The position numbers and the translations under genes are program-made. DNA of 64,000 nucleotides from Octopus vulgaris (lineage: Eukaryota), in assembly GCA_951406725.2 (NCBI GenBank), contig OX597819.1:88102001-88166000 (forward strand), read 5' to 3'. This document shows positions 1 to 63,172 of this stretch, in pieces. The first letter of the stretch is position 1. Each line of letters opens with the position of its first letter. The notes under the pieces are model-generated. The model ran no database searches. It was not told where the DNA came from and was given only the letters and a program-made list of their open reading frames with translations.

Positions 1-3000
1 GAATTACCTCCCTTTGCAGGTTTAGGGCACCGTGACGGTGTCGAGCCTTTCTGGTGACGTCGATGTTCGCCTGGGGCTAAATGCAACAGTAACACCCCCA
101 CCACCCTGCCCTGTCCCTAGCCATATTCAGATGGCTTTAGTCCCTTATGTTGTCGAGCAGTTACTGTCTATATTCCTTTTAGAGAATTATTATTGCTTTC
201 GAACAGATTTTCGAAATCAGCAAATTTATTTTGCTTGAAAATCTATATAAGAAAATCCTGCAGAGGGAGAATTCGTCGGGGAAGCGGAGGCCTACCACAC
301 GCCGATGATAGGCAATACACCTTGAAACCATGGTCCGTGTGTGGTTTCCGCTTCATCGGGGAATTACCTCCCTTTGCAGGTTTAGGGCACCGTGACGGTG
401 TCGAGCCTTTCTGGTGACGTCGATGTTCGCCTGGGGCTAAATGCAACAGTAACACCCCCACCACCCTGCCCTGTCCCTAGCCATATTCAGATGGCTTTAG
501 TCCCTTATGTTGTCGAGCAGTTACTGTCTATATTCCTTTTAGAGAATTATTATTGCTTTCGAACAGATTTTCGAAATCAGCAAATTTATTTTGCTTGAAA
601 ATCTATATAAGAAAATCCTGCAGAGGGAGAATTCGTCGGGGAAGCGGAGGCCTACCACACGCCGATGATAGGCAATACACCTTGAAACCATGGTCCGTGT
701 GTGGTTTCCGCTTCATCGGGGAATTACCTCCCTTTGCAGGTTTAGGGCACCGTGACGGTGTCGAGCCTTTCTGGTGACGTCGATGTTCGCCTGGGGCTAA
801 ATGCAACAGTAACACCCCCACCACCCTGCCCTGTCCCTAGCCATATTCAGATGGCTTTAGTCCCTTATGTTGTCGAGCAGTTACTGTCTATATTCCTTTT
901 AGAGAATTATTATTAGCTTTCGAACAGATTTTCGAAATCAGCAAATTTATTTTGCTTGAAAATCTATATAAGAAAATCCTGCAGAGGGAGAATTCGTCGG
1001 GGAAGCGGAGGCCTACCACACGCCGATGATAGGCAATACACCTTGAAACCATGGTCCGTGTGTGGTTTCCGCTTCATCGGGGAATTACCTCCCTTTGCAG
1101 GTTTAGGGCACCGTGACGGTGTCGAGCCTTTCTGGTGACGTCGATGTTCGCCTGGGGCTAAATGCAACAGTAACACCCCCACCACCCTGCCCTGTCCCTA
1201 GCCATATTCAGATGGCTTTAGTCCCTTATGTTGTCGAGCAGTTACTGTCTATATTCCTTTTAGAGAATTATTATTGCTTTCGAACAGATTTTCGAAATCA
1301 GCAAATTTATTTTGCTTGAAAATCTATATAAGAAAATCCTGCAGAGGGAGAATTCGTCGGGGAAGCGGAGGCCTACCACACGCCGATGATAGGCAATACA
1401 CCTTGAAACCATGGTCCGTGTGTGGTTTCCGCTTCATCGGGGAATTACCTCCCTTTGCAGGTTTAGGGCACCGTGACGGTGTCGAGCCTTTCTGGTGACG
1501 TCGATGTTCGCCTGGGGCTAAATGCAACAGTAACACCCCCACCACCCTGCCCTGTCCCTAGCCATATTCAGATGGCTTTAGTCCCTTATGTTGTCGAGCA
1601 GTTACTGTCTATATTCCTTTTAGAGAATTATTATTGCTTTCGAACAGATTTTCGAAATCAGCAAATTTATTTTGCTTGAAAATCTATATAAGAAAATCCT
1701 GCAGAGGGAGAATTCGTCGGGGAAGCGGAGGCCTACCACACGCCGATGATAGGCAATACACCTTGAAACCATGGTCCGTGTGTGGTTTCCGCTTCATCGG
1801 GGAATTACCTCCCTTTGCAGGTTTAGGGCACCGTGACGGTGTCGAGCCTTTCTGGTGACGTCGATGTTCGCCTGGGGCTAAATGCAACAGTAACACCCCC
1901 ACCACCCTGCCCTGTCCCTAGCCATATTCAGATGGCTTTAGTCCCTTATGTTGTCGAGCAGTTACTGTCTATATTCCTTTTAGAGAATTATTATTGCTTT
2001 CGAACAGATTTTCGAAATCAGCAAATTTATTTTGCTTGAAAATCTATATAAGAAAATCCTGCAGAGGGAGAATTCGTCGGGGAAGCGGAGGCCTACCACA
2101 CGCCGATGATAGGCAATACACCTTGAAACCATGGTCCGTGTGTGGTTTCCGCTTCATCGGGGAATTACCTCCCTTTGCAGGTTTAGGGCACCGTGACGGT
2201 GTCGAGCCTTTCTGGTGACGTCGATGTTCGCCTGGGGCTAAATGCAACAGTAACACCCCCACCACCCTGCCCTGTCCCTAGCCATATTCAGATGGCTTTA
2301 GTCCCTTATGTTGTCGAGCAGTTACTGTCTATATTCCTTTTAGAGAATTATTATTGCTTTCGAACAGATTTTCGAAATCAGCAAATTTATTTTGCTTGAA
2401 AATCTATATAAGAAAATCCTGCAGAGGGAGAATTCGTCGGGGAAGCGGAGGCCTACCACACGCCGATGATAGGCAATACACCTTGAAACCATGGTCCGTG
2501 TGTGGTTTCCGCTTCATCGGGGAATTACCTCCCTTTGCAGGTTTAGGGCACCGTGACGGTGTCGAGCCTTTCTGGTGACGTCGATGTTCGCCTGGGGCTA
2601 AATGCAACAGTAACACCCCCACCACCCTGCCCTGTCCCTAGCCATATTCAGATGGCTTTAGTCCCTTATGTTGTCGAGCAGTTACTGTCTATATTCCTTT
2701 TAGAGAATTATTATTGCTTTCGAACAGATTTTCGAAATCAGCAAATTTATTTTGCTTGAAAATCTATATAAGAAAATCCTGCAGAGGGAGAATTCGTCGA
2801 GGAAGCGGAGGCCTACCACACGCCGATGATAGGCAATACACCTTGAAACCATGGTCCGTGTGTGGTTTCCGCTTCATCGGGGAATTACCTCCCTTTGCAG
2901 GTTTAGGGCACCGTGACGGTGTCGAGCCTTTCTGGTGACGTCGATGTTCGCCTGGGGCTAAATGCAACAGTAACACCCCCACCACCCTGCCCTGTCCCTA

Positions 3001-4518
3001 GCCATATTCAGATGGCTTTAGTCCCTTATGTTGTCGAGCAGTTACTGTCTATATTCCTTTTAGAGAATTATTATTGCTTTCGAACAGATTTTCGAAATCA
3101 GCAAATTTATTTTGCTTGAAAATCTATATAAGAAAATCCTGCAGAGGGAGAATTCGTCGGGGAAGCGGAGGCCTACCACACGCCGATGATAGGCAATACA
3201 CCTTGAAACCATGGTCCGTGTGTGGTTTCCGCTTCATCGGGGAATTACCTCCCTTTGCAGGTTTAGGGCACCGTGACGGTGTCGAGCCTTTCTGGTGACG
3301 TCGATGTTCGCCTGGGGCTAAATGCAACAGTAACACCCCCACCACCCTGCCCTGTCCCTAGCCATATTCAGATGGCTTTAGTCCCTTATGTTGTCGAGCA
3401 GTTACTGTCTATATTCCTTTTAGAGAATTATTATTGCTTTCGAACAGATTTTCGAAATCAGCAAATTTATTTTGCTTGAAAATCTATATAAGAAAATCCT
3501 GCAGAGGGAGAATTCGTCGGGGAAGCGGAGGCCTACCACACGCCGATGATAGGCAATACACCTTGAAACCATGGTCCGTGTGTGGTTTCCGCTTCATCGG
3601 GGAATTACCTCCCTTTGCAGGTTTAGGGCACCGTGACGGTGTCGAGCCTTTCTGGTGACGTCGATGTTCGCCTGGGGCTAAATGCAACAGTAACACCCCC
3701 ACCACCCTGCCCTGTCCCTAGCCATATTCAGATGGCTTTAGTCCCTTATGTTGTCGAGCAGTTACTGTCTATATTCCTTTTAGAGAATTATTATTGCTTT
3801 CGAACAGATTTTCGAAATCAGCAAATTTATTTTGCTTGAAAATCTATATAAGAAAATCCTGCAGAGGGAGAATTCGTCGGGGAAGCGGAAGCCTACCACA
3901 CGCCGATGATAGGCAATACACCTTGAAACCATGGTCCGTGTGTGGTTTCCGCTTCATCGGGGAATTACCTCCCTTTGCAGGTTTAGGGCACCGTGACGGT
4001 GTCGAGCCTTTCTGGTGACGTCGATGTTCGCCTGGGGCTAAATGCAACAGTAACACCCCCACCACCCTGCCCTGTCCCTAGCCATATTCAGATGGCTTTA
4101 GTCCCTTATGTTGTCGAGCAGTTACTGTCTATATTCCTTTTAGAGAATTATTATTGCTTTCGAACAGATTTTCGAAATCAGCAAATTTATTTTGCTTGAA
4201 AATCTATATAAGAAAATCCTGCAGAGGGAGAATTCGTCGGGGAAGCGGAGGCCTACCACACGCCGATGATAGGCAATACACCTTGAAACCATGGTCCGTG
4301 TGTGGTTTCCGCTTCATCGGGGAATTACCTCCCTTTGCAGGTTTAGGGCACCGTGACGGTGTCGAGCCTTTCTGGTGACGTCGATGTTCGCCTGGGGCTA
4401 AATGCAACAGTAACACCCCCACCACCCTGCCCTGTCCCTAGCCATATTCAGATGGCTTTAGTCCCTTATGTTGTCGAGCAGTTACTGTCTATATTCCTTT
4501 TAGAGAATTATTATTGCT
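1..4518 (+). repeat. Tandem array of a 360-bp GC/CpG-rich unit (~12.5 copies, open at the left edge); retrozyme-like satellite
   Basis: Exact 360-bp periodicity. Only three differences seen: a 1-bp insertion near 915, G>A at 2800 and G>A at 3890. The array stops at 4518 and abuts a (TA)n tract. Confidence 0.99.
291..345 (+). ncRNA. Type I hammerhead ribozyme, first copy (cores also at 662, 1023, 1383, 1743, 2103, 2463, 2823, 3183, 3543, 3903, 4263)
   Basis: Stem I CACACG(296-301)/CGUGUG(336-341) with a 5' UAC bulge. Core CCGAUGA(302-308). Stem II AGG/CCU with a CAAUACA loop. GAAA(324-327). Short palindromic stem III ACCAUGGU(327-334). GUC triplet 333-335, predicted cut between 335 and 336. 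Confidence 0.88.
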
Positions 4519-39994: not shown

Positions 39995-40400
39995 TGTAGC
40001 CCACAAGGTGCTACACACAGAGAGGACAAACAAGGACAGACAAACGGATTAAGTCGATTATATCGACCCCAGTGCATAACTGGTACTTATTTAATCAACC
40101 CCAAAAGGATAAAAGGCAAAGTCGACCTTGGCGGAATTTGAACTCAGAATGTAACGGCAGACGAAATACCTATTTCTTTACTACCCACAAAGGGCTAAAT
40201 GCAGAGAGGACAAACAAGAACAGACAAATGGATTAAGTCGATTACATCGACGCCAGTGCATAACTGGTACTTATTTAATCGACCCCGAAAGGATGAAAGG
40301 CAAAGTCGACCTAGGTGGAATTTGAACTCAGAACGTAACGGCAGACGAAATGCCACTAAGCATTTCGTCCTACATGCTAACGTTTCTGCCAATACGCCAC
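39995..40400 (-). mobile_element. Second-family SINE with a tandem partial duplication
   Basis: Two consecutive copies of the GTCGACC..GGCGGAATTTGAACTCAGAA block. Confidence 0.8.
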
Positions 40401-46741: not shown

Positions 46742-47026
46742 ATGATGGTAGTGGTGGTGGTGGTGGTGGTGGTGGTGGTGGTGGTGGTGGTGGTAGTGAT
46801 GAAGGCAATGATCCTTCTCCTGTTGCTATTGTTGTTTAGCCCCTTGTCAGCCCTGATTAAGCAGATGTACATTCAAAGCATTCTAACTATATGCATACCT
46901 TCTTTTATTCAGACATGATATATCTATGACTCCATCAACCAATGTTACTTTTAATAGGTTAGAATATGATTTTAAATGAGATTTCTTTGCTATTTCTAGC
47001 AGGCCAAGTGACTGTGCTAAGTATAT

Positions 47027-47088
<62 letters not shown>

Positions 47089-47147
47089 CACATACATACA
47101 TACATTCATACATACATATATATATGTATGTATGTATGTATGTATAT

Positions 47148-47550
47148 ATGGCCTTCATTGATCTGACAAAGGCCTTTGACTCGGTAAATAGAAAAGGCCT
47201 CTTCATCCTGCTCCAAAAAATCGGATGTCCACCAAAGCTGCTGAGGATCATCAAATCTTTCCATGATGATATGCAAGGTACCATACAGCACAATGGTTCA
47301 ACATCACCCGCCTTCCAAATAAAAAAAAACGAGGTAAAGCAAGGTTGTGTCCTTGCTCCTACATTATTTGGCATCTTCTTCTTGCTGCTGCTGTCATATG
47401 CCTTTGAGACATCAGATGACGGAGTGTTTCTACACAGTAGATGTGATGGGAAACTGTTCAATCTCTCGCGTCTGCATGCCAAGACCAAAATCAGAAACGT
47501 CCTGAGATGCTATTTGCTGATGCTGCTGCTCTGGTATCACACACAGAAGG
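47148..47550 (+). pseudogene. RTE-clade (BovB-like) reverse transcriptase fragment
   Basis: [28 protein letters not shown]...[16 protein letters not shown], then a frameshift near the LFADD-like motif. Flanked by TA-rich microsatellites. Confidence 0.92.
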
Positions 47551-48227
47551 ATATATATATATATATATATATATGAAACTGCCATTCCTTCAATGCTCTA
47601 CTTGTTATAACCAGAAATGGTTCTAAAGAAGGTAGCATTAATTTTCTGAGATCATTCAATTTTTCTCAAATGATCAATAGACTGATTCAGTAAAGTTATT
47701 AGTAATGTAGCTGTTGTGGGAGGATCCTGAACACCACCATATGACTGAAGATGGACTAATGGATTTCAATAAATAAGAACTGTGTGAACTGTCAAGTGGA
47801 GTTGACAGTGTTGGTGAACCATATTGGTTACAGTGTAAGTGCAATGTGTGTTGGTTTAATATCATACCTATGTTTGAGTAGTACGGAGTGCATTCTATGC
47901 GAACAAAATAATTCTGTGATAGGTATTTTTAGATAACCACATCCAAATATTTATTTTTTTAACCCGATGTGTACACCATATGTCATAACAGTACCTATAA
48001 TCATTACTGGAAACAGCTGTAAGCCAAATCTGCTCCAACAAAGGAAGAATACATAATGATCATTATATTCAACTTGTTTTGTATATATATATATATATAC
48101 ATACACACCCACACACAAACATATATATATGTGTATGAGTGTGTGTGTATATATTTATATATGTATATATATACATACATACACACATATACATATACAT
48201 ACACACACACATATATTACATATATAT

Positions 48228-60069: not shown

Positions 60070-61511
60070 TATCTGGAAACATATTTTTAATTTTTTGCCT
60101 CAGTTGTTTGACTTCATTCAAGCTTTTAACCATGCTAACTATATTTTCACAGAGGACACTAATGGGGGTATTAAATAACTCCATGCATTCTGTGCCAAAT
60201 AGGTTTAGTGATTTTTTTCAACCCATAAATGATTGTCCTTTTCATTTCACCTTGAAAAGTAACATTGAAAATACATTCACTGATGAAATATAATTTCTTT
60301 CCTGTGACACCATATACTACTTTATTTGATTTAAATAATTTCATCTTACTGATTTGTTGCCACGTTTTTTCATTTATAATAGTGATGTCTAATTGTATTT
60401 TGACACTTGTGGTTTTGATTCTCACCTTGATTAATTTTCTGTTTGTTGTACAAACTTTATTCTCTGACGACAAACTATATATCTTTTTCTCGTTTGGTCC
60501 AATTTTTCGTCATCTTAGTTCTATAGTGCGATTTAATGTGTCCTGTGTTCCCACAATGAAAGAACTTTGCTTCTTTGAACAGACACTCATTTCTCATGTG
60601 CCTACCACCACATGCCATATATGGGTTTATCTCCTGTTGTCTATCATGTATTTTGTGAGACACTTGATCCCTCTTCCAACTCTTCCACACTGGTTTTATC
60701 AGTAAACAATCTCTGTGTTGGATTTCTTCTGTGTCATGCCTTACTTTTAGTATCATATTGCACTCTCCTGACAGTTTCTGGCGAGTTATATCTAGGTTCA
60801 TTTCTAGCTCTGCGAGGATTTTCGTTCTGACTTCTGTGTCCTTTTTTAGCAGTAAGTCCCTGAGCAAAAATCAGGCACTTGAATGAGTTTGGAGTTAGTT
60901 TATCCAGTTTAAATCCCTTGCATGCTCTGTTCACTCTACCGGCACATGTGGTAAAGTCTTTGTCATCACTTTTCTCAGTGTTCAAAGACTTCCACGTGTT
61001 GAATAATCATGTTTTTTCAATGAGCATCTTAAATAAAATGCCAATTGTGTCTGTGAAATTTATGTCAGAAACTTTTTTAGTTACAGTATTTCTCATGCTC
61101 TGTCATTGCCAGTTCCCTCAGAATTAGATGCATTTTCACTTCATCTGTCCAGCCTTGGCATTCTTTTTTGAAAATTTGTTCAAATCTTTGGTAACATACC
61201 CCAAAGGTGATTCCTTCTTCTTCATATCTAAATTCATTTATTGAATTTGCTACATGGGCTGGTGAAAATGTATTTTCCAGTTTTGTTACCAACTTCATTA
61301 CATGTAGTATTTGTTGCTGAAACATTTGTTGTTCTTGTTGTTCATTGAGTTGTTGCTATTGCTGTTTTTGTAACTCAACTAGACCCTCTAACAAGTTTTC
61401 TATAATTTTACAGATTTTTTACAAAATATGTACAATAAAAATGTTTGTTACTCTTGTATCGAGTTTTTAATTTCTCCATGTGAAAAAATTTTCAACATCA
61501 TCTGTGTGAAT

Positions 61512-61922: not shown

Positions 61923-62837
61923 ATCTATGGAAAATTGTTTATTTTCTCATAAAAGAATTTTTTTTTCAATGTTGTCCATGTGAATTGTTTATATCCTCAT
62001 CACCACTGTTATAATGTGAATCCTCCTCCACTTGTATGTTACTGGCAGCACTGTAATATTCTTGTCACCATAATGTTGTTGTGGCGGTATTCCACATCTT
62101 ATCTTTGACTCGTCAATTGTGCTATCACTGATAGCTCCACAAGACAATGACTGAAAAACCTACCTTGATGGTAACTCAAACTCGTATATATTATGTAACT
62201 GACACTGGCTCCAACTGAGAACTCGTACAATGTCTCTACTACTACTGACCTCCTACAACGACTGATAGCCTGACTTTATAGTGGCTGTATCATACCACTT
62301 TGTCATGTGGGAAGGGGAGTACCATTTTCACTGCAACAGCTTGTTTCTATGTTGACCACTGAAAACAATTAATAAAATTGATAATATTTCATGATTTTCA
62401 TGTGATTTAAATTTATTTCATCATTCTGCAGATAATTGTGCACTTATTTTCTGAAAACAGATTGGGCTAAGTTGGTGGTATATTGGCTCCTACTTTTAGC
62501 AATCCATGTACTGTCTATTTCACCATAATGCTTTTTACAGAGTGAAAAAATACTCTACCTATCACTCAACCCACCTCCAACTTTCTTTCAATTTATACAT
62601 TACGTTTATTCCTTTGAAGTCGCCACTGAACCTTTGCTTTCTCTCTGCCTATATGTCCCTCTCTATGTCACTATCTCCCTCTCTCTTTGGTTGTATATGT
62701 TTCTCTCTCTCTTTCACTCGCGCTCTCTCTCTCTCACTACCTCTACTTCTTTTCTCTCTAGAGAAAAAAACGCATGAGAGACAGACAGACAAAGATGGTT
62801 ACGGAGAAAAAAAACAAGTGAGACTGAAGTGGGATGG

Positions 62838-63172
62838 AGGTAGCCACATCTATAAATCTATCAACAAAGTTGTTGACAAGGACGATGCAGTTCATAATCC
62901 TGTTGAATTCCTCAACAGTCTGGAACCATCCTGTATTCTGTCACGCAACCTTGAATTGAAGAAGGGTGCAGTCATCATGCTTCTCAGAAGCCTGGATCAG
63001 CCAAGATTGAGCAATGGTATACATATGGTCGTGATTTAACTAAAGCCTCACATCATCAAAGCAAAAATCCTCACTGGATGTGGTAAGGGAGACATTGTAT
63101 TTATACCTACAATACCACTAATACCAACAGATGCCCCCTTTCATTTCAGACAATTGCAATTACCAACAAGAT
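62838..63172 (+). pseudogene. Helitron PIF1-like helicase fragment
   Basis: PVEFLNSLEPS...LELKKGAVIMLLRSLDQPRLSNG...*LKPHIIKAKILTGCGKGDIVFIPTIPLIPTDAPFHFRQLQLP. Confidence 0.9.

Follow-up and report, generated by a model that had tools for sequence, protein, structure and literature searches.

The 360-bp array and its hammerhead motif

The analysed stretch of Octopus vulgaris DNA, a 64,000-nt window (contig OX597819.1, positions 88,102,001 to 88,166,000, forward strand), opens with a tandem array of 360-bp period that covers positions 1-4518 (12.5 copies, 99% matches, Tandem Repeats Finder) and breaks off sharply into (AT)n at its right edge (4518/4519). An earlier note on this DNA had described a tandem array whose units each carry a hammerhead ribozyme. 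The 12.5 units are confirmed, but the array is only one arm of a head-to-head inverted element of 8,273 bp, located in (AT)n at G000:C6:88098246-88106518, an inverted, fixed-ended and (AT)n-targeted insertion. Positions within the unit are given as q numbers, with q1 being the base right after the predicted cut site (window 336). The features of the unit and of its arm are:

1-4518, plus strand: long ('tailed') arm as far as it lies in the window, 12.5 of ~14.5 tandem 360-bp units
55-106, plus strand: TGACGTC and CCCCACCACCC motifs, read from the unit sequence
244-250, plus strand: TATATAA, ~30 nt upstream of the hammerhead helix, putative internal promoter
276-359, plus strand: extended helix flanking the hammerhead, GAAGCGGA/UCCGCUUC, including 279, a locus-private G (A in the family)
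296-341, plus strand: first of 12 hammerhead motifs, type I, predicted cut after C335 (C17 = 335)
4473-4518, plus strand: 46-nt tail, q177-222, long arm only, predicted stem-loop
4519-4540, no strand: (AT)n target site; (AT)n likewise adjoins the inverted arm at its far end

The array contains 12 complete type I hammerhead motifs, one per complete unit, with predicted cuts after positions 335, 695, 1056, 1416, 1776, 2136, 2496, 2856, 3216, 3576, 3936 and 4296. In the first copy, stem I is formed by CACACG (296-301) and CGUGUG (336-341), the core by CCGAUGA (302-308) and GAAA (324-327), and a 3-bp stem II with a 7-nt loop by AGG (310-312) and CCU (320-322); stem III is palindromic (ACCAUGGU at 327-334). 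The predicted architecture is that of a type I hammerhead, with three stems, the core, an open stem I and a UH cut site. A relaxed type I descriptor, which allows U4C and a mismatch at 10.1-11.1, gave 0 hits in 20,000 dinucleotide-shuffled versions of the unit and none in window positions 4519-64000. All copies in the window depart from the consensus core twice, with U4 replaced by C and U·U at 10.1-11.1. The 12 motifs of the earlier note stand at their sites, but to call them full hammerheads was an overstatement. Its suggestion that Rfam be used to confirm them did not work out, as there was no match over the window at the gathering score and none over positions 200-560 at E ≤ 10.

The unit is non-coding, with no open reading frame (ORF) of at least 130 aa in positions 1-4518. 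The 360-nt monomer, modelled as a circle, is predicted to be highly self-paired, with a minimum free energy (MFE) of -123 kcal/mol compared to -93 ± 6 for 60 shuffles (z -5.2). The hammerhead core is absent from the MFE fold of the monomer, and in the energy model two copies are needed to close stem III. The putative internal promoter TATATAA has a TATA-like counterpart at similar spacing in two sister families of the same genome, B and C.

Family B is ~70-88% identical to the unit in local pieces and carries the core UUGAUAA, with a U3-A8 pair and G10.1-C11.1, while family C has the canonical core CUGAUGA and a stem I identical to that of the window family (family A). Both are older, with ~2,000 and ~2,600 first-look candidates, respectively, and share the tail and the (AT)n target (L039:8665-9104; L091-L150). 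In an alignment of seven copies from the three families, 96.9% of cells are paired, compared to at most 50% in slid controls, and five pairs are changed on both sides, C3-G8/U3-A8 among them; the seven rows are related and were chosen as intact, so the alignment counts as support and not as a statistic. Stem III is palindromic throughout (CCAUGG, CCUAGG, CCGG, CUAG and CUCGAG forms), as expected if hammerheads cleave as dimers (PMC4209133). This covariation between sister families speaks for a real hammerhead.

A degenerate pattern gave 1,471 family A motif matches genome-wide. A hand count of the first 100 found 48 CCGAUGA, 35 CCGACGA, 8 UUGAUAA, 7 UUGAUGA and 2 UUGACGA cores. Variation at N7 and in the 3-8 pair is what selection for a ribozyme predicts, with U4C as the exception; sister subfamilies carry U4. 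The unit is also covered, at 95-99%, by contigs from public runs with three further organism labels. These contigs run back after 360 nt, for which tandem DNA suffices as an explanation; being contigs, they carry no information on RNA starts, ends or strand. They keep C4, and one differs at N7. The genome-wide matches, the covarying pairs and the circular fold together bear out the earlier proposal of a young, dispersed, non-coding hammerhead retroelement of the non-LTR (long terminal repeat) retrozyme type.

Anatomy of the insertions

The array begins 684 bp upstream of the window start, where it meets the inverted arm. The inverted arm of the element measures 3,076 bp and the plus arm 5,202 bp, with a 5-nt overlap at the join. 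We fetched 18 loci from the top hits, a set biased to long arrays, and found two outward-pointing arms in 15 and one arm in three. In all 15 two-armed loci, one end lies at q164-178 (14 at q176 or q178) and the other at q218-223. At their 3' ends 17 of the 18 loci adjoin (AT)n, the exception (L046) having a 12-bp target-site duplication (TSD). Exact patterns for junctions to (TA)n identified 529 short ends and 750 long ends genome-wide and none in reversed controls. An unselected sample of end pairs at most 15 kb apart, covering C1 and C2 to 117.6 Mb (68 short and 100 long ends), contained 45 outward pairs, every one of which combines a short with a long end (0 short+short, 0 long+long); two further neighbour pairs are not outward-facing. 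The 45 elements are 196-8,325 bp long (median 796, 24 of at least 720 bp), compatible with an exponential distribution.

The 44-46 nt separating the short and long sites form a predicted stem-loop whose 3' base is q222, the arm end, and this tail stretch is the best conserved part among families A, B and C. In 32 of 33 arms (a scrambled one was excluded), the inner ends are distributed uniformly round the unit (Kolmogorov-Smirnov p 0.99). The two arms overlap by 0-8 nt at 13 of 15 junctions and are separated by inserts at the other two, with overlaps of at least 4 nt at 4 of the 15 junctions versus 1.7% at random. One junction is scrambled (L043:4152-4400), with many short deletions and rearranged bits over ~250 bp, after which the sequence is exact again.

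Insertions of Penelope-like elements (PLEs) are characterized by a 5'-truncated copy in inverted orientation, a tail of 30-40 bp confined to one end, a preference for (TA)n and an 8-10-bp TSD (PMC8557442, PMC3846280). The inverted 5'-truncated arm, one-ended tail and (TA)n target observed here are the same hallmarks. This inverted PLE-like anatomy is more informative than the ribozyme repeat itself.

Individual insertions carry private variants. The locus of the window has G at q304 (window 279) where the family has A, and all 18 matches of the G304 variant in the 2.8-Gb assembly fall at this locus, in both arms (12 plus, 6 minus). Similarly, all 9 genome matches of a 201A variant lie at C18:14.53 Mb and all 8 of a 254C variant at C1:75.38 Mb, again in both arms. 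For a variant that fills both arms and is found nowhere else, the simplest explanation is that one monomer was copied repeatedly to make both arms. In 175 of 178 units the sequence is exact across the cut site, with no bases gained or lost, which favours a covalently closed template over end-to-end jumping.

Proposed mobilisation and its rivals

We consider it likely that the element is a non-autonomous non-LTR retrozyme moved in trans by a PLE through twin-primed rolling-circle reverse transcription. The inverted layout, the paired fixed ends, the (AT)n target, the single haplotype per locus, the exact passage across the cut site and the covarying hammerhead are read from sequence; we infer transcription, cleavage, the circle and the identity and dimer state of the partner protein. 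In the proposed mechanism, the internal TATA promoter would drive transcription of units, and neighbouring hammerheads would pair via their palindromic stem III and then cleave, probably slowly or aided by protein. The released 360-nt monomer would be ligated to a circle. A PLE protein with reverse transcriptase (RT) and GIY-YIG domains, probably a dimer, would cut both strands of the (AT)n target, and both target 3' ends would prime on one RNA, at q176/178 and q222, flanking the conserved stem-loop. The two enzymes would then circle the template for a random distance of up to ~15 turns, and the two cDNAs would be joined head-to-head, either blunt or by short microhomology. For a purified anole PLE, a predicted dimer, nicking and extension were seen on both strands of the target, with synthesis beginning at two internal positions of the RNA, one on either side of the tail (PMC11167929). 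The more specific proposal, that the insertions are fossils of twin rolling-circle target-primed reverse transcription in which a PLE dimer sat on both feet of one stem-loop in one ribozyme-made circle, is tentative, and we rate its chances at slightly below even. If true, it would explain the PLE tail, the inverted arms and tandem pseudo-LTRs (pLTRs) in one step.

A candidate mobiliser of the unit is an intact 781-aa PLE with RT and GIY-YIG domains and a Cx4Cx2C motif ahead of the nuclease, encoded elsewhere in the genome. Its 3' ends, in 13 of 16 copies, are short in 10 and carry a ~31-38-nt tail in three, all running into (AT)n, and both of the two copies with an inverted arm combine a long with a short end. 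A pattern requiring stem I found no hammerhead in the one copy searched; once stem I was no longer required, a U3-A8 motif with a palindromic stem III appeared in 16 of 16 copies, which represents a candidate ribozyme. This family is young and intact (L082:2481-7290, also L071-L086), with several GATGACGTC repeats in the 3' region, and an upstream open frame of up to 479 aa without Pfam match overlaps the 781-aa frame.

Further PLE-related arrangements were encountered among the fetched loci. At L145:880-1733, an RT fragment of a second PLE family is fused to family C units between two (AT)n runs, which may be the result of a template switch between PLE mRNA and retrozyme RNA. A 5'-truncated PLE with a 574-aa frame (L087:3814-6980) lies in (AT)n with a long inverted arm and a ~28-nt extension on one side, and CCGA occupies positions 3-6 of its hammerhead-like motif. 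L084 near 1195 (ORF-forward) and the minus strand of L191 near 8326 hold more hammerhead-like motifs, which have a palindromic stem III and no relation to families A-C; one of the two again has CCGAUGA. A weak tail-like match in the second PLE family (L191 1496-1533) lies apart from the PLE frames.

Several points weigh against the PLE-moved, circle-templated retrozyme, among them the combination of U4C with U·U: in the hand-counted first 100 of the 1,471 matches, U·U is found in all 100 and C4 in 83, and U4C strongly reduces activity in vitro yet sustains viroid infection (PMC3088659). A test of U4C and U10.1·U11.1 together was not found in the literature. In the anole PLE, mutating the hammerhead left in vitro insertion unchanged and none of the RNA reads had an end at the cut site (PMC11167929), and 8 of 9 Xenopus retrozyme dimers did not cleave (10.64898/2026.07.22.740005). 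No arm ends exactly at the cut site, so there is no direct genomic trace of cleaved RNA. Homology to the unit was absent from 20 GIY-YIG loci and 20 wider stretches, the lone weak match being a solo family C copy, and from 30 + 12 loci of the second PLE family, in a search covering 150 of 6,136 GIY-YIG candidates scored. Alignments of the tail to the 781-aa PLE are not significant (p 0.27-0.37). At the locus of the window, 2 of 22 units have A304 instead of G304, one in each arm (window 2799; L031:7724-8083), at the 5th and 6th unit from the ends. One A304 unit per arm is too specific for random error and is not explained by one homogeneous circle; conversion, a switch to a sibling circle, a heterogeneous multimer or inosine in the template could each be the source. 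Since q304 is part of a predicted duplex, the template may have undergone A-to-I editing, and that the 2/22 reversion represents an ambiguously read inosine is speculation.

Each core variant alone has an active precedent. U10.1·U11.1 is the best tolerated mismatch (PMC3088659), and the axolotl HHR_Amex2 has U·U and cleaves (PMC7229834). On balance, we consider it somewhat more likely than not that the hammerhead of this subfamily is active.

An unlikely alternative is PLE-type twin priming on a long, uncleaved linear multimer, with no circle and the hammerhead a dead or dispensable relic. The weak core (U4C with U·U) and the dispensability of hammerhead cleavage for anole PLE insertion in vitro (PMC11167929) agree with it, and A304 at the 5th and 6th unit of opposite arms fits adjacent units of a heterogeneous multimer. 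It requires, however, a parent array fixed for each private variant, and none is present in this assembly for the three variants tested, although another individual could carry a parent multimer of this kind. Other sporadic substitutions in one arm have no mirror image in the other (judged by eye at the locus of the window, L032, L038, L039, L046 and L049), and without a regenerating step arrays on such a template could only shorten.

That a short inverted PLE-type insertion came first and its arms then expanded locally, satellite-like, by unequal crossing-over or conversion is quite unlikely. Local expansion would likewise place a template variant in both arms, and two adjacent L040 units have one homopolymer deletion in common, but the longest arrays belong to the youngest, near-identical subfamily (99-100%) while the older family B has no more than 2-3 units per locus (40 scored candidates). 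Sporadic substitutions are singletons rather than blocks, and lengths are continuous from 196 bp. We regard as very unlikely a single monomer template without a ligated RNA circle, in which the RT either makes repeated jumps from the 5' end of a cleaved linear monomer to its 3' end or copies an extrachromosomal DNA circle. It explains one haplotype per locus equally well; against it stand the 175 of 178 exact cut-site junctions and the lack of a pile-up of arm ends there, and with a DNA circle there would be no selection for a covarying ribozyme. An assembly artefact from fold-back reads or collapsed repeats has a negligible chance: scattered homopolymer indels do resemble read errors, but fixed asymmetric ends in 45 of 45 pairs, flanks that differ on the two sides, locus-private variants, the same layout in older subfamilies and coverage of the unit by independent contigs from four public runs speak against it.

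Within the favoured rolling-circle reading, the youngest subfamily may have gained its long arrays by weakening the hammerhead (U4C), sparing circles during copying. At least two hammerheads on one arm are found at 15 of 28 C4 loci versus 0 of 13 U4 loci (Fisher p 0.001), a comparison limited to loci among the first 100 of 1,471 matches and to exact patterns, which miss mutated copies. The apparent link between array length and the C4 core is only a hint because the contrast is effectively one evolutionary change, and same-arm dimers in family B (U4) weaken it. Arms in ten fetched U4 loci are mostly near-identical, so that these loci are not obviously old.

We take TGACGTC to be cAMP response element (CRE)-like and CCCCACCACCC to be GC/GT-box-like, both as candidate labels only. 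Newt satellite 2 has a small nuclear RNA (snRNA)-type promoter. In a comparison of the unit with the 250 bp upstream of six U6 loci, only chance words were alike, and an snRNA-type promoter was rejected. Five tandem variant U6 genes, ~1.1-1.4 kb apart and with octamer-like and TATA-like elements upstream, lie at G000:C1:139.42 Mb (L193, L194). Three short decayed frames are found at window 46980-47576 (plus), 60475-60870 (minus) and 62500-63039 (plus), which presumably resemble a piece of a LINE (long interspersed nuclear element) RT, a gag zinc-knuckle piece and a Helitron/PIF1 helicase piece, respectively. Window 40000-40351 holds a 184-bp near-dimer of a common repeat resembling a short interspersed nuclear element (SINE).

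Novelty and closest known systems

The retrozyme class, PLE tails, the link between retrozymes and PLEs and the idea of a circle as template are already in print. Hammerhead-made RNA circles have been proposed since 2014 as RT templates for PLE products of more than unit length (PMC4209133, PMC7229834), the origin of inverted and tandem PLE structures has been called undefined (PMC8557442), and an in vitro PLE study found the ribozyme dispensable on linear RNA (PMC11167929). A cephalopod retrozyme family was not found in the literature, although supplementary and subscription material may hold one, or U4C variants; neither were inverted multi-unit retrozyme arms, strict short/long pairing or locus-private haplotypes, which supplements or subscription papers may likewise contain.

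A ribozyme repeat alone would be a modest find. The value lies in the insertion anatomy, as a pointer to twin rolling-circle reverse transcription and a source of parts to test it with. With hundreds of young insertions whose ends pair strictly, a single template haplotype at each locus, an intact enzyme as candidate and (AT)n as a simple target, the family makes the choice between circular and linear template, the use of one or two RNAs and the role of a weakened ribozyme directly testable. The family also suggests that one insertion event is enough to give a long 'satellite' array in some cases, and shows a hammerhead variant which Rfam misses.

The unit has the sequence-level features of a retrozyme, being non-coding, tandem, dispersed and devoid of LTRs with one hammerhead per unit. 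Metazoan non-LTR retrozymes (coral, mussel, axolotl Rtz_353/HHR_Amex2, newt satellite 2; PMC7229834) similarly possess a non-coding tandem unit of 150-450 bp with less than 50% GC, one type I hammerhead per unit and a self-paired predicted circle. HHR_Amex2 likewise has a basal U·U in helix II and cleaves more efficiently in dimeric form. In contrast to these systems, U4C is fixed in the youngest subfamily here, and the available parts of that report describe no head-to-head arms, tail, paired fixed ends, (AT)n targeting or cephalopod. Cleavage and circles are demonstrated there and predicted here.

Vertebrate retrozymes have been described as derivatives of PLE pLTRs in a study which likewise concludes that retrozymes are non-autonomous PLE partners (10.64898/2026.07.22.740005). 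In the available parts, that study draws the PLE link from co-occurrence and pLTR homology, includes no mollusc and favours local satellite-like expansion; in the octopus the link comes from insertion anatomy, and a homologous autonomous PLE was not found among the loci fetched. The Chlamys elements, for example MRC1 (PMC8557442), are also non-coding PLE partners with multicopy head-to-tail insertions, but are algal and belong to a clade reported to be without canonical hammerheads. Endonuclease-positive (EN+) PLEs of the Neptune/Nematis/Naiad type (PMC8557442, PMC3846280, PMC11167929) share with the octopus element an inverted truncated copy, a one-ended tail, (TA)n targeting and a TSD of ~8-12 bp, together with a TATA box in the repeat, a hammerhead with palindromic stem III and two RT starts bounding the tail. 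The octopus element differs in having no ORF, with RT and GIY-YIG ORFs located elsewhere in the genome, in a tail of 44-46 nt instead of 30-40, and in that the whole 360-nt unit acts as the pLTR, with up to ~15 repeats per arm.

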